From Sulfurimonadaceae bacterium (GTDB lineage Bacteria; Campylobacterota; Campylobacteria; Campylobacterales; Sulfurimonadaceae), in the NCBI GenBank assembly GCA_041562555.1, contig JBFEXS010000014.1, forward strand, positions 1 to 32,968: a stretch of 32,968 nt of DNA. The letters are read 5' to 3'. The position numbers and the translations under genes were made by a program. Positions 8,712 to 16,551 of the stretch are shown here, piece by piece. Each line of letters starts with the position of its first letter. The first letter of the stretch is position 1. The notes under the pieces are model-generated. The model had not been told where the DNA came from, searched no databases, and was given only the letters and a program-made list of their open reading frames with translations.

Positions 8712-10028
8712 TCAAATAAGTTTTTTCTTTCTAAGGTAACGCATTGTCCCGGTAATTCCCAGCATGAGTAATAAGACGGCAGCAATATCATTGATCCAAA
8801 CCCACCAAGACGAGAAAAATGTTCCATCATGCAAGGCAAGCAAAAGGGAGTAGAGTGTTGCACTCTCAGACTTTGGAAGTGCAAGTTGACTTTTGTGGGA
8901 CAGAAACACTTTTTCATTATCCACAAGATTGATATCCTTGAACATATGCGGTGTTTTAGGAAGAACCTTCAGTGTGCCATTATGCAATATTCTGTTTGGT
9001 GCACCCATGCCGCTGATATACAAGGTGTCATCAATACGTTTCATCCTGTAGGCAAATCCTTTGGCAGTCATCTTCCAATCGACAAGGTTCGTACTCTCAT
9101 AGACACCATAGCGGTTTCCGATTCTATAGCTGTTCTTATCCAGATCTACAGACCAGATGTCCTCTTTGAGTGTTCCGTATACCGGCGGCAAGATAGCATG
9201 AGGTATATGTACGGAACGCATAAAAGCACCAAGAAGTTTAGGATGATCCAGGAAGATACCCGTCACCAACAGGATAATGAAAGGGATGATCGCAAGCAGG
9301 ACGAACACGTTTGCATGTAGACGTATGAGCCTGCGGGAGATGGTTGCACTCTTTTTATGTTTGATGAGATACCAGATAATATAACCGCTCAAGGAGAGAA
9401 ATACCAGGATCAATGCGGCGTAATCATTGATAAGCAACGAGGCAATACCATCAAAGAGACCACGACCATAATGTAAATCTCTTACAAAACGACCCAGAGA
9501 TATTTCATGCCTGAGGTCCTCTTCAGGTATAGAGACTTCGGTCTGTGTCAAGACTTTTCCACTCTTAATATCAATTAATGTCAATAGCTTCTTATCAATA
9601 GAGACAAGGAGTTTATCGTCATAGACAGCAATCGCATTAATGTACAAGCCTTTAAGGGAGAAGGACCTCCATTGAGCATTCTCGAGGATGTATATCCCAT
9701 CATTTGTAGCCGCATAGAGTGCATTATTATCAGAACGAAGACCAAGACATTGTTTATCCAGGGTTTTCATAAAGCCTGATTCATGCTTCTCAAAAACCCC
9801 TCGGCGGCTTCCGACAACGATATGGGTAGGATCCTTTGGATCTATCCAATATGCTTCCACAAGACGTTTCTCATGTTTATATACGGAATCCGGAACATGT
9901 TCAAAGGAGATGTCATACATGAATGACCAGTTTTTATGATCAAGGAAAAAACCTGTGAGGGAAAGTATGAAAAGGAGTACACCGGCAGTCAAGCCGGAGT
10001 ATTTGTGAAGTCTAAAGAGTTTTACCAT
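8712..10028 (-). CDS. PepSY-associated TM domain protein, internally duplicated
   Basis: RLHKYSGL...SLTGFFLDH...DLHYG is repeated as RLHANVFV...VTGIFLDH...ALHDG. Overlaps the TonB receptor stop by 7 nt. Confidence 0.8.
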   Translation of the reverse strand: MVKLFRLHKYSGLTAGVLLFILSLTGFFLDHKNWSFMYDISFEHVPDSVYKHEKRLVEAYWIDPKDPTHIVVGSRRGVFEKHESGFMKTLDKQCLGLRSDNNALYAATNDGIYILENAQWRSFSLKGLYINAIAVYDDKLLVSIDKKLLTLIDIKSGKVLTQTEVSIPEEDLRHEISLGRFVRDLHYGRGLFDGIASLLINDYAALILVFLSLSGYIIWYLIKHKKSATISRRLIRLHANVFVLLAIIPFIILLVTGIFLDHPKLLGAFMRSVHIPHAILPPVYGTLKEDIWSVDLDKNSYRIGNRYGVYESTNLVDWKMTAKGFAYRMKRIDDTLYISGMGAPNRILHNGTLKVLPKTPHMFKDINLVDNEKVFLSHKSQLALPKSESATLYSLLLALHDGTFFSSWWVWINDIAAVLLLMLGITGTMRYLRKKKLI

Positions 10029-12109
10029 CTATACTCAAGACCTGCATAGAATTGACGTGGGTCCCCCGGAGAGAAAGCATCGCTGTATTTTGAACTGGCA
10101 CTCACTGCATATGCCTCATCGGTAATATTATTTACTTTGCCAAAGATAGAGATATGATCATCATATCGGTAATCTGCTTTTAGATTCCCTATGCTGTACC
10201 CACCATATTTGGCATGATTGATCCCTCTTGCAGGATTGGTCTCATGAAGGTCGTTCATCCAATATGAACCGACATATTGCCATTCACCCATGATGCGAAG
10301 ACCGTTCACCGCGCTTGGAGTATAGATCAGGCGGACATTTGCCAAATGGTTCGGTGCCTGAGCGATCTCATTGTCATTGAAAGTTGTATCGTCTACATAA
10401 TTGTGTTTGGAGTAGGAGTAAGCGATATGTGTTCCCCACTCATCTGTGATCTGTGTATTAAGGGTTGCTTCAATACCTTGGTGAATTGTTTCTCCACCAT
10501 TGGCATAATAGCGTGTTCCGCCAACTCTATACGAGGTGATCGTATCATCTACCGTCATGTAATACAAGGCTATTTCCAGGAAACTCTTTTCAGCAAAAAG
10601 TTTTTTAATACCGATCTCGAAGGTATCAGATATTTCAGGATCGAGTTCTACCTGGCTATAACCGGCCTTCATTGAGTAGAGGGTCACTGCCTGGGGAATA
10701 CGGAATCCATTGGCGTAGCGGGCATATATATTGATATCTTTATCTGCTTGATATTGCAACGAGAGTTTTGGACTCAGGTGAGAAAAACTATCTGTGCGGT
10801 CTGCAGGACGAAAATAGACACCTGAAGGATCTGTTGTATTGTCGGCAAGGTTGTTTTGGTAGTCATAATGATTGTAATCGTAGCGCAGACCTGCTGTCAG
10901 CATCATCGCTTCGGTTATGTCATATTCTGTATGAATGTATGGTGCGATAGCCATATAGTCGACGTCATAATCATACAGCTTACCTGTCGTATAGGTGGCT
11001 CCTCCAAAACCTGTTGTTGTGATGTCAAAGTCCTGGGCATAGTTGAGAGAAGATTGTGTATATTCCCCATCAAAACCGGTGATAAGTCTGCCCCATGACG
11101 CATCATAGGTGTTCTTTTCCATTAAACCTGCTGTTTGGATTGTATTATCACTACTTGGATAGTTGCCTTCCCAGGTAGCAACATAGCGGTTTCGGTTATA
11201 ACGCAAATATGGAGTTAAAGAGATCTCAAGATTATCAAAAGAGTAATTGCTCCACTCTGCACTGAGTCGCGCATAATCAAATTCGCGTTTGATGTCAGTG
11301 GCATCTAATGCTGCAAAATAGTCTGCATCGTCGCTTGCATCTTTGGAAACATTTTCAATGTTTTCATAATCATGGAAAGAGTCTGCCTGTTCAGCATCTG
11401 TCTTACTTGTATTGAAGATGATTTTTAGTTCATTCTCGTCGTTGATCTCCTGATCATAACGAAGATTGGCTTCGATACGGTCTGTTGAGGTATGATCACG
11501 CCAACCGTCGCTATGCATGTATCCTACATTGGCACGGTATGCGCTTGTACCATCAATAGTATCGCTCATCTCTACCGAGCCAGAAGCAAAGCCATAGCTT
11601 CCTTCCATACCTTTCAGGGAAATTTCCTGCTCTTTTGACGGTTTTTTGAGTGACTCTACATTGATTACGGCAGCAACTGCATCTGAACCGTATAGAGCGG
11701 TTCCCGCACCTTTTAATACTTCAACGGATGTCGCAGACTGGTAAGTCGTATACGCGAGCCCGTTATGATTGAAAAATCCTGATGATTGTACGGGGATGCC
11801 ATCTTGCATAAAAAGGTAATAAGAACTCTTGTTCTCTGGCATACGGATAGCAGTCGTATGTCCAATAACAGAGCCGGTCTGTTCGATCTGTACACCGGCA
11901 ATAGAATTAAGCAGGTCTTTTTGAACGATGACCTGATCAAGCTTGATCTCACTCTCTTCCTTGGTCGAGATACTTAAGGCTTGGTCAATGACTTTTTCTT
12001 CAGATTTTGTTCCTGTGACACTGACAGGCTCTAAATTGATGACTTCTGCGTAGGTACCGGTTGCACATAACGCTGCAATAATACTGATTTTAATTCTGTG
12101 CATTTTCAT
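10022..12109 (-). CDS. TonB-dependent outer-membrane receptor, substrate unknown
   Basis: Signal peptide, TonB box (EPVSVTG), plug motif VEVLKGAGTALYGSDA, and C-terminal NITDEAY...PRQFYAGLEYRW. SD AGGAG. Confidence 0.95.
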   Translation of the reverse strand: MKMHRIKISIIAALCATGTYAEVINLEPVSVTGTKSEEKVIDQALSISTKEESEIKLDQVIVQKDLLNSIAGVQIEQTGSVIGHTTAIRMPENKSSYYLFMQDGIPVQSSGFFNHNGLAYTTYQSATSVEVLKGAGTALYGSDAVAAVINVESLKKPSKEQEISLKGMEGSYGFASGSVEMSDTIDGTSAYRANVGYMHSDGWRDHTSTDRIEANLRYDQEINDENELKIIFNTSKTDAEQADSFHDYENIENVSKDASDDADYFAALDATDIKREFDYARLSAEWSNYSFDNLEISLTPYLRYNRNRYVATWEGNYPSSDNTIQTAGLMEKNTYDASWGRLITGFDGEYTQSSLNYAQDFDITTTGFGGATYTTGKLYDYDVDYMAIAPYIHTEYDITEAMMLTAGLRYDYNHYDYQNNLADNTTDPSGVYFRPADRTDSFSHLSPKLSLQYQADKDINIYARYANGFRIPQAVTLYSMKAGYSQVELDPEISDTFEIGIKKLFAEKSFLEIALYYMTVDDTITSYRVGGTRYYANGGETIHQGIEATLNTQITDEWGTHIAYSYSKHNYVDDTTFNDNEIAQAPNHLANVRLIYTPSAVNGLRIMGEWQYVGSYWMNDLHETNPARGINHAKYGGYSIGNLKADYRYDDHISIFGKVNNITDEAYAVSASSKYSDAFSPGDPRQFYAGLEYRW

Positions 12110-12131
12110 AGATTCTCCTGATTAGGAAGGG

Positions 12132-12164
12132 ATTATTTCAAAAAATTGTTACAGAAGTGTTAAA
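12132..12164 (-). promoter_or_regulatory. Putative TonB-receptor promoter: 11-bp-period direct repeat (TTTAACA-n4-TGTAACA) upstream of a TGaAATAAT -10-like element
   Basis: Half-sites at 12164-12158 and 12153-12147; the -10-like hexamer is at 12137-12132. Confidence 0.4.
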
Positions 12165-12217
12165 TTTAAAAAATAAAGTAAAAATAAGTTTGGAGGTAAA
12201 ACATGAAGTTTCAAGAG

Positions 12218-12238
12218 GTATCAGGACATTTGTCCTGA
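12218..12238 (+). repeat. GTAT-led perfect palindrome (REP-like element, operator or terminator)
   Basis: GTA-TCAGGACA-TT-TGTCCTGA, with 8-bp arms. Confidence 0.45.
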
Positions 12239-12363
12239 AATAAAGGCTTACTCTCAGGGAGTCGCTTAATTACGATAGATAAGATATGTTCTAGAGGAGT
12301 TCAATGCCCTTCAGTATCCACTATGAGTCAAGCTCTAGTAGGGTTTCCATAGACTGGAATCAA

Positions 12364-12459
12364 GGTTTGCATCTGCTCACGGCCTATAACACTCTTTCCA
12401 TTAAGGTGTACTATAAGACACACATGTCAGTGTGCCCGTATCGCTCTGCGATATGCACC
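12364..12459 (-). ncRNA. Candidate structured RNA (five abutting stems), family not recognised
   Basis: By-eye fold on the minus strand: TGCAT/ATGCA, ATCGC/GCGAT, ACGG/CCGT, GCACAC/GTGTGT and CTTATA..ACAC/GTGT-TATAGG. G-U pairs work only on the minus strand. Confidence 0.5.
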
Positions 12460-12473
12460 AATAGCAAAAATAG

Positions 12474-12599
12474 TTATAGACTATCTTCTCTGTACTCACC
12501 CGATCTATTCTTGTTTTCAAGCGGAAGAACGCTCAATCCACTAGAACGTGCTTGAAGAAACAAGTCAAGACCTAAAGCCGTAAAAATTATTTGTATCAT
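12474..12599 (-). CDS. Small hypothetical protein, 41 aa (MIQIIFTALGLDLFLQARSSGLSVLPLENKNRSGEYREDSL)
   Basis: ATG with SD AAGGAAG just upstream and a TATACT -10 about 55 nt upstream. Below the ORF-track length cutoff. Confidence 0.5.
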   Translation of the reverse strand: MIQIIFTALGLDLFLQARSSGLSVLPLENKNRSGEYREDSL

Positions 12600-12782
12600 T
12601 GGCTTCCTTGTGGTTCTTAATTAGTAGCTACAAGAACAATGTTACTCCTTATAGTATAAATAACAACTTAAGAAAACAGGTTGCCTTTTTTAATACCTCA
12701 TAGAACTAAAATATTTACAAAATACCATTTTTTGGTTATTATTCTTAAACAAACCATATGGTCTGTAAGTGAGGAGAAAAGT

Positions 12783-13796
12783 ATGACAAGGGTATTGATA
12801 TTAGGAGCGACAGGTTTTGTCGGGACACATGTATCCCGTGCACTAAAGGAAAATCGAAATGTAAGGATGATACTTGGATGCAGGAACAGTGCACGTTTGT
12901 GTCCATCTCTTCAGGGTGAGGAGCTGAGAGTAGGGGATATTCGGGATGAGGTCTATTTAGAAACGCTTTTTGAGGGGATAGATATATTGGTGAACCTTGC
13001 CTCTTGGACAGCATTGTATGCACAGGAGGAAAACTCAAAAGCACTCTATTTGGATCCGACGCTCAATCTCATTGACAAAGCAAAAAAAGCAGGTGTGAAG
13101 AGGTATCTTAATTTGTCTACGTTAAGCGCGGGATGTCGCGGTGAGGAAGCAGATGAAAACAGTTTGGGCTGTTTTCGGCCATTCTGGCCTCATTTAAACA
13201 ATGTCATACGCATAGAAGATCATCTCCGTCGTCTCTCCTGTGAGAGTTTTGAAGTGATCAATCTGCGATGTGGTCTTTTTGTAGGAGAGGATTATTCTCT
13301 GGGGCTTTTACCGATTCTCTTACCGAGGCTTAAAACGCATCTCGTCCCTTTGGTAAAGGGAGGGAATACACCTATGCCACTGATAGACGGAAGAGATATC
13401 GCACAGGCATTTTGCAAGGCGGTCATGTATGACAAACAGATGCCTAACCATTTTGAGGGATTTCATATCCTGGGTAAAGATGTCCCCAAGGTCAAGGAGG
13501 TGTTGCAATATTTGCATCACAAGTATAAGTATCCTTATCCCCATTTCTCTGTCTCCTTTCCCATTGCCTATGGGTTTGCGCGCTGTATGGAGCTAATAGA
13601 CCCTATATTACCCAATGACCCCCTGATCGTTCGTTCCATCGTCTATCTGCTTGAAGATACCAAGTCCACTAATGCCAAAGCAGAGGAGATCTTGGGATAT
13701 ATGCCGGAGCATACATGGCAAGATGGTATTGACCGCCAGATCAAGGAGATGAGTATACGACAAAAGGAAATGATGGGCATGGCAAAGGCTGTATAA
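12783..13796 (+). CDS. NAD(P)-dependent epimerase/dehydratase (extended/atypical SDR)
   Basis: Rossmann motif ILGATGFVG immediately follows the ATG at 12783, which has SD GAGGAG. The ORF-track start at 12681 is probably too long. Confidence 0.85.
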   Translation: MTRVLILGATGFVGTHVSRALKENRNVRMILGCRNSARLCPSLQGEELRVGDIRDEVYLETLFEGIDILVNLASWTALYAQEENSKALYLDPTLNLIDKAKKAGVKRYLNLSTLSAGCRGEEADENSLGCFRPFWPHLNNVIRIEDHLRRLSCESFEVINLRCGLFVGEDYSLGLLPILLPRLKTHLVPLVKGGNTPMPLIDGRDIAQAFCKAVMYDKQMPNHFEGFHILGKDVPKVKEVLQYLHHKYKYPYPHFSVSFPIAYGFARCMELIDPILPNDPLIVRSIVYLLEDTKSTNAKAEEILGYMPEHTWQDGIDRQIKEMSIRQKEMMGMAKAV

Positions 13797-13881: not shown

Positions 13882-14625
13882 GTGATACGGATCAGTCTCT
13901 TGGTACTTCTTGTAATGCAAACGTTGACGGCGCAGCAGTTGACGATTGCCGTGGCAGCGAATGTCTCCTATGCGATTGAAGAGCTGAAAGGAGAGTTCTT
14001 AAAGGCTCATCCTGAAACCAAGATTGATATTATCTTGGGCAGTAGTGGGAAACTTTCCGCACAGATACAGCATGGGGCGCCTTACGGTCTATTTATGTCT
14101 GCGGACATGCAATATCCACAAAGCCTGTTCGACAGGGGATTGGCGATGGCGCCTCCCCAAGTGTATGCACAGGGGGCTTTGGCACTTTTTAGTGTAAGTC
14201 CAAGAGATTTTACGCTGGGTCTGGGGTTACTGGCGGATCAAGAGGTAGAGACTATTGCCTTGGCCAATCCAAAGACTGCTCCCTATGGACAGGCAGCGAT
14301 TGAAGCGATGGAAGATGCGGAGGTATTGGCGATAGCAAGGCCAAAGTTCATTTTTTCCGAATCAATATCACAAACACTCTCTTATGCGCTGACTGCTGTA
14401 CATATCGGGATCATATCCAAGGCGGCATTGTATAGTCATAGGATGCAGGCATATCATGAGGGTGTACATTGGAAAGAGATTGATATTAAACACTATGAGC
14501 CTATAAAGCAGGGAATCATCCTTCTTAAAACCTCTCATGAAGAACCTTTGTATAAGGCATTCTATGACTTTGTCCTGAGTGGGACGGGACAGGGGATCTT
14601 AAAGAAATACGGGTACATTATATAA
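13882..14625 (+). CDS. modA: Molybdate ABC transporter periplasmic binding protein
   Basis: AVAAN, GSSGKL..QI..GAP, FMSAD and ANPKTAPYG. Signal peptide; GTG start. Confidence 0.95.
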   Translation: MIRISLLVLLVMQTLTAQQLTIAVAANVSYAIEELKGEFLKAHPETKIDIILGSSGKLSAQIQHGAPYGLFMSADMQYPQSLFDRGLAMAPPQVYAQGALALFSVSPRDFTLGLGLLADQEVETIALANPKTAPYGQAAIEAMEDAEVLAIARPKFIFSESISQTLSYALTAVHIGIISKAALYSHRMQAYHEGVHWKEIDIKHYEPIKQGIILLKTSHEEPLYKAFYDFVLSGTGQGILKKYGYII

Positions 14626-15020
14626 TGAATTATATAAAAGCAGAGATCTCGGCGATTGACTCCATCGGTACTATCAACCTGGTCCATTTTAAGGTGCAAA
14701 CAGAGGTTATGAAGATGATCTCTCTGGAGTTGGATCAATCCCTGAAGGTAGGTACGCATGTACATTTGGGCGCGAAGGCAACCAATATCGCCATTGCCAA
14801 GACGTTCTCAGGAGAACTGAGTATCTCCAATCAGTTAAGCTCAGTGATCACTTCTTTGCAGATGGGAGAGTTACTGTGCAGTGTCAAGTTTGATTTTTTA
14901 GGGACATCGCTTGAGAGCATTATCACGAAAGACTCGGCAATGAAGATGAACTTGAAAGAGGGAGACGCTATCACCGCATTGATCAAGTCAAGTGAACTGT
15001 CGATTGTGGAGGTGTTATGA
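14625..15020 (+). CDS. Di-TOBE/Mop (molbindin-like) protein
   Basis: [27 protein letters not shown]. Lies between modA and modB, as in Campylobacter mod operons. Confidence 0.85.
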
Positions 15021-15703
15021 TGCAGGAATTTGATCTCACACCTTTTTTACTCTCATTTAAGCTAGCAGGGCTCACGACTGTAATCCTCTTTTTGATCGCT
15101 TTACCTTTGGCCTGGTGGCTTTCTCAAAGCCGGTGCCGATGCAAACCCTTTATAGAAGCGATTACTTCTTTGCCGATTGTATTACCTCCATCGGTGATAG
15201 GGTTTTATCTTTTGTATGCGCTTTCTTATAATTCGCCCATAGGAGCGTTCTTTCAAGAACAGTTTGGTATCAAACTTGTGTTCAATTTTACAGGGTTGGT
15301 GATCGCAAGCTGTTTTTACTCTTTTCCTTTTATGGTGCAGCCTTTGCAAAGCGGATTCGAGTCGATTAACAAAAACATACTCGAAGCTTCATATCTGGCG
15401 GGAAAATCAAAGTTTCAGACTTTGGTATATATTGCATTGCCTAATATCAAACCGGCACTTCTCACGGCACTTATTGTGACTTTTGCGCACACGGTAGGTG
15501 AATTCGGAGTTGTGCTGATGGTAGGGGGATCGATTCCGGGAGAAACGAAAGTGGCTTCTGTCGCGATTTATGAGTTTGTTGAGATCCTTGATTATAGCAT
15601 GGCACATATCTATTCGGGAATCATGATCGTGATGAGTTTTATCGTGCTCTTGGGTGTCTATAGTTTTAACCGTCGTCATTCACATAGATTGGGGACAGCC
15701 TGA
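15017..15703 (+). CDS. modB: Molybdate ABC transporter permease
   Basis: [18 protein letters not shown]-like loop (EASYLAG) and FAHTVGEFG. Confidence 0.95.
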
Positions 15704-16551
15704 TGCTTACAATCGATATTGAAAAAAAAATCCAGGGGAGCGAAGGGAAGATGGACCTGAAGGTCTGTCTTGAAATGGCAGAACAGGGGTTCATTGCACT
15801 CAGTGGTGAGAGTGGAGCCGGAAAGAGTACGCTACTTCGCATTTTGGCAGGGCTTGAAGATGCTAGCGGAAAGATCCAGTTGGGAGAGACATCATGGCTT
15901 GACGGTAAAAAGAGTCTTTCACCACAACAGCGTGACATAGGTTTTGTTTTTCAAGATTACGCACTTTTTGACAATATGAGTGTAGAACAAAACCTTCTTT
16001 ATGTCAGTAAAGACAAGGTGTTGGCGGAACATCTGTTGGAGTTGACCCATATGACAGAGTTGAAAAAACGTCGTCCTCACATGCTGAGCGGAGGTCAAAA
16101 ACAGAGGGTCTCCCTGTGCAGGGCTTTGATGCGCAGGCCTAAGCTGCTCTTGATGGATGAACCTTTGTCCGCGCTGGATCCGCAGATGCGTTCAAAGCTT
16201 CAACAGGATATTTTGAATCTGCACCAGGAATTTGGGACGACGACGATTATGGTCTCCCATGATCCGAGTGAAATATATAAGCTGGCAGATCGGGTGATCA
16301 CTCTCAAGCACGGTAAAGTAGTTCAGGATGGTACGGCCAAAGAGGTCTTCTTGCAGGCACGCGGAAGTCAGAAGTTCTCACTTCAAGGAGAGTTGCTCGA
16401 GATCGTAAAAGCGGATGTGATCTATATTGCCGTAGTCGCTATAGGACAGCAACTTGTGGAGATCGTCCTTGACGAAGATGAGGCAAAAGACCTTGAAATA
16501 GGGCAGCGTGTAGAGGTTAGTACGAAACCATTCTCTCCTTTTATCAACTAG
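15703..16551 (+). CDS. modC: Molybdate ABC transporter ATP-binding protein
   Basis: GESGAGKST, VFQDYALF, LSGGQKQR and LLLMDEP, with a C-terminal TOBE-like region. Confidence 0.92.
   Translation: MLTIDIEKKIQGSEGKMDLKVCLEMAEQGFIALSGESGAGKSTLLRILAGLEDASGKIQLGETSWLDGKKSLSPQQRDIGFVFQDYALFDNMSVEQNLLYVSKDKVLAEHLLELTHMTELKKRRPHMLSGGQKQRVSLCRALMRRPKLLLMDEPLSALDPQMRSKLQQDILNLHQEFGTTTIMVSHDPSEIYKLADRVITLKHGKVVQDGTAKEVFLQARGSQKFSLQGELLEIVKADVIYIAVVAIGQQLVEIVLDEDEAKDLEIGQRVEVSTKPFSPFIN

Follow-up and report, generated by a model that had tools for sequence, protein, structure and literature searches.

A predicted structured RNA gene of Sulfurimonadaceae with a maintained small open reading frame

Introduction

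What is the densely paired sequence that lies upstream of a TonB-dependent receptor gene in a Sulfurimonadaceae bacterium: a leader of that gene, the tail of a small mRNA, or a gene in its own right? The question arose in a stretch of 32,968 nucleotides (assembly GCA_041562555.1, contig JBFEXS010000014.1, positions 1 to 32,968 of the forward strand), which we call the window. A first-pass annotation, made from the letters alone, had flagged positions 12291 to 12459 as an unrecognized multistem RNA read on the minus strand. We found that these 169 nucleotides (nt) are the middle of a larger, previously undescribed RNA gene of Sulfurimonadaceae, sulfur-oxidizing bacteria. The whole gene is ~415 nt and is predicted to occupy 12215..12631 of the minus strand, from a probable transcription start at a short palindrome to just past a terminal hairpin, making the real element about 2.5 times the length of the flagged interval. 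We consider it very likely that the element is a structured RNA gene in its own right and that its open reading frame (ORF) is maintained. Within that description, our preferred reading is a dual-function RNA of the RNAIII/SgrS kind, which would serve both as a small mRNA and as a folded RNA, with translation gating the fold; we hold this second claim at even confidence.

Results

Comparative evidence enlarges the flagged interval

Taken alone, the flagged 169 nt fold no better than chance (minus strand, z = −0.65, with 53 of 200 dinucleotide shuffles as good; plus strand, z = −0.38). A shuffle test by itself would have sunk the claim of a structured RNA there, and it was comparative evidence that rescued and enlarged it. 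A BLAST search with the 681-nt intergenic region against 41 related genomes gave matches of 324 to 572 nt at 66 to 81% identity in 15 of the 16 other congeneric genomes, where conservation spans 12215-12631. For the sixteenth (G004, 86% complete), BLAST gave only a 34-nt match, which lies outside the element. Searching the window's own genome with a DNA profile of 16 homologs returned a single minus-strand match, at 12213-12661 (E = 1.4e-115; next best, E = 0.73); this genome carries one copy. Homologs also occur in eight further genera. Over 12215-12631, the single-sequence fold of the minus strand reached z = −2.78, and none of 100 shuffles was as good.

To examine the fold, we used two sets of sequences, analyzed separately because a joint MAFFT alignment of the 3′ domain from all genera (A6) was too poor to fold, with just three pairs predicted. 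The first set, alignment A3, holds 30 nonidentical sequences: the window's own, 15 from genomes of the same genus, 12 from metagenome contigs, and L037 and L038, the copies from the two closest genera. The second, alignment A5, holds 24 sequences from eight other genera and was folded on its own. Since each consensus structure came from RNAalifold and was tested on the very alignment that had produced it, a procedure that favors structure, our main safeguards were the agreement between the two independent sets and a slid control, in which every 3′ partner was moved by 1 to 3 columns.

The A3 consensus structure has 107 to 111 pairs in 20 to 22 helices, with 92.0 to 92.8% of alignment cells in standard pairs, compared to 41 to 49% in the slid controls. 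The corresponding structure from A5 has 120 pairs in 20 helices and 87.4% of cells paired, against 38 to 44% when slid. Changes on both sides of a pair were seen at 57 pairs in A3 (23 to 32 slid) and at 75 pairs in A5 (27 to 35 slid). Column shuffles gave 25 ± 2.7 such pairs for A3 (none of 500 reached 57) and 43.7 ± 3.5 for A5 (0 of 500), although the sequences are related, so that these shuffle figures overstate significance and are not to be read as probabilities, the slid partners being the fairer comparison. The order of the helices is identical in the two sets. Taken together, the alignments show about 20 predicted helices maintained by compensatory changes.

The strand proposed at the outset was the right one, as judged by conserved G-U pairs at A3 columns 114/188 (28 of 30 sequences), 328/402 (29 of 30), and 204/462 (21 of 30). 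The individual stems fared less evenly. Every stem that the first-pass annotation had listed can be written at its place in the window, but when all nine were mapped onto the 30 homologs, only 69.3% of cells were paired, compared to the 92.0 to 92.8% of the consensus; two of them are conserved, and a third is probably real. The conserved two are ATCGC/GCGAT (90.7% paired) and TTCCA/TGGAA (100% paired), each with compensatory changes at four of five pairs. The third, GCACAC/GTGTGT, scored only 63.7% because the alignment is unreliable at this hairpin; every homolog has a hairpin there, with a different sequence, and all six pairs change on both sides. The proposed P1, TGCAT/ATGCA, is paired in 68% of cells and has three pairs that are broken in 9, 15, and 22 of the 30 sequences. 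Likewise, ACGG/CCGT (47.4%) and the block CTTATA..ACAC-CTT with AAG-GTGT-TATAGG (58.5%) did not hold up. The bases of these three belong to long-range helices instead. Finally, CTAGAG/CTCTAG can form in only 11 of 30 homologs, since CTAGAG lies in a 9-nt insertion; in L004, that insertion forms a local covarying hairpin.

Layout of the RNA

All features below lie on the minus strand and are given in the order in which the RNA would be read. A −10-like hexamer, TAACAT (pattern TAnnAT), is predicted at 12639..12644, 7 nt upstream of the palindrome, and the 30 and 24 aligned homologs have TAACAT, TACCAT, TAAGAT, TACTAT, TATCAT, or TATACT at this position. A consensus promoter scanner, which requires a −35 box, reported nothing at 12639-12644. 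The palindrome itself, GTAGCTAC (12624..12631), is 8 nt long and marks the predicted transcription start; in most homologs, it reads GTACGTAC. All 29 A3 rows that reach this far carry it, either as GTAGCTAC (a subclade) or as GTACGTAC, both of which are palindromic, and it is invariantly GTACGTAC in all 24 sequences of A5. In some A3 rows it grows to 12 to 14 nt, and several copies have TTTGTAGCTACAAA. Directly after the palindrome, the other genera share a conserved AAGGTACC. The palindrome may be the operator of a dimeric regulator or a 5′-terminal element of the RNA. As the operator of a regulon it was rejected, the window's own genome having no second extended site; GTAGCTAC occurs there 7 times and GTACGTAC 24 times, compared to ~29 expected from composition.

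The ribosome-binding site (RBS), AAGGAAGCC (12601..12609), ends 1 nt before the ATG (12599) of a small ORF and is unpaired in the conserved fold. Its core is invariant, as AAGGA in A3 and as AAGGAAGC in A5. Only the leader, the RBS, and the first six codons are single stranded in the fold, and the stretch from the RBS through codon 6 forms a 29-nt single-stranded landing pad. Beyond it begins a long-range closing helix, in which CGGCTTT (12574..12580, codons 7 to 9) pairs with TAAGCC (12245..12250) near the 3′ end. The downstream strand contains a repeat of the AAGCC located after the RBS. Within the genus this helix is invariant, and its core, GGCU:AGCC, is paired in 27 to 29 of the 30 A3 rows. 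In the other genera it covaries: columns 111/474 are U-A in 16 and C-G in 8 of 24 sequences, with zero mismatches, while columns 108/477 are C-G in 12 and U-A in 10 of 24. The GAAGCC at the RBS can also pair with the GGCTTT of codons 8 and 9, giving an alternative hairpin that is the choice of both the single-sequence fold and RNAalifold.

Inside the closing helix lie two domains. Domain I (12502..12572) is a long, irregular four-helix hairpin formed by ORF codons 10 to 33 and nothing else. Its helices, at A3 columns 113-116/186-189, 121-126/173-178, 131-135/166-170, and 137-141/154-158, are 94 to 100% paired, and 13 of the 20 pairs have compensatory changes. The domain is also present in other genera. 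In four copies from genus g5 (L102, L112, L113, and L115), the tip of Domain I is gone, a loss of ~30 nt in frame that leaves an ORF of 33 codons.

Domain II (12256..12501) is a multibranch structure of ~250 nt that contains the flagged interval. It is closed by three stacked long-range helices, 12501-12495/12261-12256, 12491-12482/12286-12277, and 12481-12474/12389-12382, and encloses inner helices and hairpins. The 5′ strands of the closing helices, GGGTGAG, AGAGAAGATA, and GTCTATAA, are the last nine codons of the ORF plus its stop. Apart from one variable hairpin, pairing in A3 is 86 to 100% per helix, and the helices come in the same order in other genera. One metagenome copy (L062:226-538) carries a 38-nt insertion in a single-stranded junction of Domain II, and the insertion is a hairpin of its own, ATCGCTCGCGAAGCGAT; extra hairpins inserted in junctions are frequent in structured RNAs. 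By eye, GAGUU in the loop of Domain I seemed able to contact AACUC of Domain II, but we dropped this contact since it is not kept in other genera.

The element closes with a terminal hairpin, TCAGGAC-loop-GTCCTGA (12221..12238), which is probably the 3′ end or terminator in this genus. It is 96.7% paired in A3, with compensatory changes at five of seven pairs. In the window, no T-run follows it, and a terminator scan found nothing there. In the other genera, a canonical intrinsic terminator, made up of a GC-rich hairpin and a T-run, comes after the homologous hairpin.

The reading frame runs through the fold

The small ORF (12474..12599, minus strand) has 41 codons and a TAA stop, in the frame that starts at the RBS. 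It is open for 33 to 45 codons in 51 of 53 distinct sequences, compared to at most 19 codons for the other two frames from the same start, and the frame is maintained across nine genera. In A3, all gaps within the ORF, at four or more places, are multiples of three, and gaps of 1 and 2 nt are common after the stop codon. Column variability at the three codon positions is 0.50, 0.40, and 0.57 (third above first above second). Among codons that differ by a single base, 35.5% of the differences are synonymous, compared to 16.6% and 23.4% in the shifted frames. The open frame, the in-frame gaps, and the codon-position and synonymous signatures indicate that the frame is kept and that there is some selection on the peptide. 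Together with the invariant Shine-Dalgarno sequence, these comparative signs favor translation of the ORF.

From codon 7 to its stop, the ORF is base paired. The first-pass annotation had offered, among other ideas, that the flagged interval was the structured 3′ untranslated region (UTR) of the 41-amino-acid ORF or a small RNA; this came closest, in that ORF and structure are predicted to share one transcription unit, but the ORF itself proved to lie within the fold. The peptide is weakly conserved. Its cross-genus positions, A/V-L-G and R/K-S-G, are encoded by GGYTTTRGG and GATCGGGT, both of which are segments constrained as RNA. Radical amino acid changes come in pairs that track the covariation of a helix; for example, where CACTC/GAGTG gives H-S...S-V, CCCC/GGGG gives A-P...G-Y. 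Two genomes (L100 and L101) have a 1-nt insertion that leaves an ORF of 20 codons, with the fold kept. The fold is also kept in L105 and L106, second copies in genomes G107 and G133, in which a 1-nt deletion moves the stop so that the ORF has 37 codons.

We found no Pfam or NCBIfam family for the peptide and nothing usable in the ESM Atlas. A collection of 5.8 billion proteins contains 42 clusters of it, all unnamed or “hypothetical.” The peptides of the nine genera are mostly hydrophilic and have no membrane-spanning stretch; the hydrophobic run seen in this genus measures ~14 residues and has no equivalent in others. The ORF has no runs of regulatory codons. The peptide may have a function of its own, although its sequence is weakly constrained.

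These data bear on two rival accounts of the locus. The first is a plain mRNA, in which the 33- to 45-amino-acid peptide is the product and the fold stabilizes the message and controls its translation, for example, through competition between the AAGCC copies for GGCUU. The invariant RBS, the nearly universal open frame, the coding signature, the physical inclusion of the ORF in the fold, and the 42 clusters called as proteins in public data all fit such an mRNA. What it does not readily explain is that the conserved peptide positions coincide with RNA-constrained segments, that paired radical substitutions follow helix covariation, and that the fold persists where the ORF is truncated or its end is frameshifted. 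Moreover, a multibranch structure of ~250 to 300 nt with conserved unpaired bases exceeds, in our judgment, the needs of known stabilizing 3′ UTRs. We regard a plain mRNA as a possibility to be kept in mind, though not a probable one.

The second account drops the peptide altogether: a structured noncoding RNA whose frame is kept for the passage of ribosomes, which might, for instance, protect the RNA from Rho or nucleases during synthesis or help it to refold. Here the weak conservation of the peptide, mostly explained by RNA constraints, its lack of a family or recognizable features, and the broken ORF in 2 of 53 sequences become supporting points, while the synonymous excess, the ordering of codon-position variability, and the maintenance of the frame across nine genera speak for coding. 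On balance, this account is unlikely.

Relation to known RNAs

No Rfam 15 family matched anywhere in the window at its gathering threshold, so the first-pass description of the RNA as unrecognized stood; none of the families that the annotation had been unable to match (cobalamin, Moco, TPP, c-di-GMP, and 6S) was at or near its gathering score. At E ≤ 10, region 12050-12800 had four stray matches (best, 17.3 bits against a cutoff of 50), none of which combined a bacterial regulatory family with the correct strand and place. For 11 homologs from other genera searched at E ≤ 1, two stray matches were found far below the cutoff.

Housekeeping RNAs were considered by locating them elsewhere. The element is not tmRNA, which was found at another place in five of five genomes including the window's own, nor RNase P RNA, which was elsewhere in four of five and unmatched only in the window's 89%-complete assembly. 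In that assembly (G000), the Rfam RNase P model has no match, compared to matches in all four other family genomes, probably because of an assembly gap. The Rfam 6S model matched none of five family genomes, with or without the element, and is thus uninformative. In Campylobacter jejuni and Helicobacter pylori, 6S RNA is described in a comparative survey as a 185-nt rod upstream of purD (PMC3847290). Beyond that survey, full-text literature searches gave no description of RNAs of Sulfurimonas or Sulfuricurvum. Compared to the rod depicted for the Campylobacterota 6S RNA, the RNA studied here is branched and bears an ORF.

In its general plan, the element resembles dual-function RNAs: it is predicted to be transcribed on its own, to several hundred nucleotides, and to have a short ORF within its 5′ part, many hairpins, long-range helices that join its 5′ and 3′ parts, and coding and folded states that compete. 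The Staphylococcus aureus RNAIII is reportedly 514 nt long and is said to encode delta-hemolysin; SgrS/SgrT, SR1/SR1P, and AzuCR are other dual-function RNAs. Unlike these, our element lies in a different phylum (Campylobacterota), has its ORF in conserved helices from codon 7 to the stop, and encodes a peptide not conserved as a functional toxin or regulator; there is no relationship to them in sequence or in Rfam.

Type I toxin mRNAs such as hok and aapA offer a second comparison and a third account, in which a toxic peptide is encoded by a compact mRNA that is silenced by 5′-3′ pairing in the manner of a type I toxin-antitoxin system. The likeness is real as far as it goes: a compact mRNA, a peptide of fewer than 50 amino acids, a long-range helix that joins the 5′ region and the 3′ end, and a local hairpin that is able to mask the RBS and could act during transcription. 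Against it, the peptide is not hydrophobic and has no membrane-spanning stretch in any of the nine genera; the RBS is open in the conserved fold; and no conserved antisense ORF was found, an antisense promoter not having been sought systematically. Type I toxin loci are typically multicopy and patchy, whereas here one copy sits at a syntenic core-genome site. We also know of no counterpart of the large 3′ domain, Domain II, in type I toxin mRNAs. A toxin of this type is very unlikely.

Two further groups share some features with the element. OLE, the raiA motif, ROOL, and GOLLD are orphan large structured bacterial RNAs, all of which we take to be in Rfam. Like them, the element has several domains and several hundred nucleotides, covaries, is restricted to a lineage, and appears abundant in RNA libraries; unlike them, it matches none of these models and has a strong RBS and a kept ORF, where they are not known to have a conserved translated frame. 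What it has in common with riboswitches and leader-peptide attenuators are conserved nucleotides at junctions, a short ORF ahead of the structure, and a hairpin or terminator at its end. It differs from them in having no consistent downstream gene, and its structured part overlaps and follows the ORF instead of preceding a gene.

An independent unit among changing neighbors

In the window, the gene order is rarA, an HD-domain (HD_5) sensor protein, PepSY, the TonB receptor, the RNA, an epimerase gene, modA-mop-modB-modC, and a Na/Pi transporter. The TonB-dependent receptor and PepSY-TM protein genes lie at 8712-12109 on the minus strand, and the modA-mop-modB-modC molybdate transporter operon lies at 13882-16551 on the plus strand. 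Of 16 loci of the same genus, 7 have a same-strand TonB receptor as the next gene downstream of the RNA, 7 have a convergent rarA/mgsA-type ATPase there, and the other 2 have a different gene on the opposite strand. The seven receptor loci are the window and six other same-genus genomes, with a contig break in one (G003) bridged by L019. Where present, the receptor gene begins ~110 nt past the terminal hairpin. Upstream, the divergent neighbor is modA with Mop/TOBE at seven loci, an epimerase gene at three, and a Na/Pi transporter at two; two further loci have modA with Mop/TOBE beyond the epimerase gene. The same-genus neighborhood looks like an inherited gene order with insertions. In some relatives, rarA abuts the RNA, and compared to these, the genes for the HD_5 sensor protein, PepSY, and the receptor have been gained here between the two. 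Loci in other genera have unrelated neighbors (LigD-N, PEBP, nitroreductase, deformylase, KARI, OmpA, and others), most often with a convergent gene downstream.

A link to molybdate uptake was rejected, as the modA/Mop neighbor is absent from other loci of the same genus and from other genera. Just upstream of the TonB receptor gene, at ~12120-12175 on the minus strand, there is a separate conserved block, TTAACACTTnTGTAACA...TTTTTGAAATA, that also occurs in L006, L008, L013, L014, and L019 and overlaps a promoter-like site. It is probably the promoter or operator of the receptor gene itself.

Since the downstream gene varies and is often convergent, the RNA is not the leader of the TonB receptor. 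A cis-regulatory RNA or riboswitch, the main idea of the first-pass annotation, which would here act with a leader peptide on the receptor and PepSY genes, draws on the same-strand receptor in 7 of the 16 loci and on possible read-through of a hairpin that lacks a T-run in this genus, but with an opposite-strand gene next in the other 9 and at most loci of other genera, a canonical terminator ending the element in those genera, a conserved upstream block with a promoter-like site before the TonB genes themselves, and no matching riboswitch family, it is largely refuted by gene context, and we consider it the most improbable of the accounts. The conserved −10 hexamer, the terminal hairpin or terminator, the variable neighbors, and the confined RNA contigs described below all point to an independent transcription unit with predicted ends.

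Distribution in the family and RNA libraries

With a covariance model of the 5′ half, we found the element in 39 of 151 family genomes and in 9 of 23 genera; the model covers that half only, and its E-values are rough. Carriers number 15 of 16 genomes in g1, 1 of 4 in g3, 4 of 6 in g5, 7 of 16 in g7, 3 of 3 in g8, 1 of 1 in g9, 5 of 10 in g26, 1 of 1 in g28, and 1 of 2 in g34. Three larger genera had no match to this model among the genomes sampled (g2, 0 of 29; g33, 0 of 29; g37, 0 of 12). A search of 140 genomes from other families of the order gave three weak matches (E = 0.005 to 0.009) and no convincing one; on inspection, we rejected all three as ordinary starts of signal-peptide genes. 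Pattern scans of genome contigs gave 13 real loci out of 17, in metagenome-assembled genomes labeled Sulfurimonadaceae, Sulfurimonas, Campylobacterales, or “Arcobacter,” and scans of metagenomes gave 12 real copies out of 19; the remaining 4 and 7, respectively, were chance matches that were removed before counting. Viral contigs did not match the motif pattern. The element is restricted to part of the family Sulfurimonadaceae, with a length of ~415 nt here and ~480 nt in other genera.

Five single-contig genomes carry it (G041, G076, G085, G092, and G107). Two genomes of g7 have two copies ~2.4 kb apart (G107:C1:2583731-2586302 and G133:C7:492345-494918). The second-copy type was also seen in two further species (G060 and G084), where it also has a 1-nt insertion that cuts the ORF to 20 codons, and the fold is kept.

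Seventeen metatranscriptome runs (salt marsh, with one from sediment) contain a small share of the element's words. We aligned four of these at 80% likeness to 11900-13000, and all four gave contigs of 66 to 340 nt at 80 to 95% identity, as from relatives. The contigs are confined to 12247-12609, with a word depth of up to 399 for one short contig, and several end 4 to 13 nt beyond 12609, near the predicted start. In these four runs, no contig fell on 11900-12158 or 12640-13000, although the flanks of relatives differ, so that the neighbors are not thereby shown to be silent. The contig pattern is weak evidence that fits a discrete, abundant RNA.

Discussion

How could one RNA be both read and folded? 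An initiating ribosome covers mRNA to about position +19, and an elongating ribosome unwinds helices. In our element, the long-range closing helix begins at +20. Because of this spacing, a ribosome could load on the free 5′ segment of the folded RNA, and initiation would be possible there. Elongation would have to melt the long-range helix as well as Domain I and the three closing helices of Domain II, so that a given molecule would be either translated or folded. The second AAGCC, beside the RBS, would compete for the same GGCUU partner, and the local hairpin that covers the RBS may hold back translation before the 3′ partner has been transcribed. Delays of this kind have parallels in the metastable hairpins of hok mRNA and in the delayed translation of hld in RNAIII. 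In the dual-function RNA that we propose, a protein or RNA partner would be the target of the folded 3′ domain, whose activity would be gated or reset when the embedded ORF is translated. We place the main function in the folded RNA since constraint is stronger on the fold than on the peptide and the fold persists where the frame is lost. As to whether this translation-gated RNA of the RNAIII/SgrS kind is the right description, we would be as ready to see it fall as stand.

Several points weigh against it. The strong RBS and the kept frame would fit a plain, very stable mRNA for a small protein equally well. Translation of the ORF is a prediction from sequence, as are the start and end of the transcript, and a role of the fold in trans is conjecture, with a hypothetical target, partner, and phenotype. 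The alternative hairpin over the RBS has no covariation and is impossible in 2 of the 30 A3 sequences (L003 and L005). A scan for pseudoknots between the unpaired regions gave nothing convincing, only G/U-rich alternatives, and found no conserved seed-like loop. The metatranscriptome contigs carry no strand or true ends, the libraries can contain DNA, and the flanks of relatives would not have aligned. The relatedness of the homologs, noted above, tempers the shuffle statistics as well.

A bolder form of the model would make the element a new class of riboregulator that senses translational state, with Domain II formed only on untranslated copies. We think this doubtful, but if it were true, the activity of the RNA would rise when ribosomes or initiation are limiting and fall with brisk translation, and the twin AAGCC would be a timing device during synthesis.

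We know of almost no RNA biology in Campylobacterota other than pathogens, and the element adds to that part of the phylum an undescribed, well-supported family of structured RNA. It is also a clean natural case of overlapping constraints, in which the same 120 nt are maintained in two capacities, as reading frame and as four regions of helix, with pairs of amino acids changing in concert with base pairs. Should translation gate the fold, the locus would provide a simple, testable model of ribosome traffic controlling the other job of an RNA. The five carriers assembled as single contigs may be cultured strains, which would make experiments feasible. Finally, the presence of relatives in salt marsh and sediment metatranscriptomes suggests that the RNA is probably expressed in nature.

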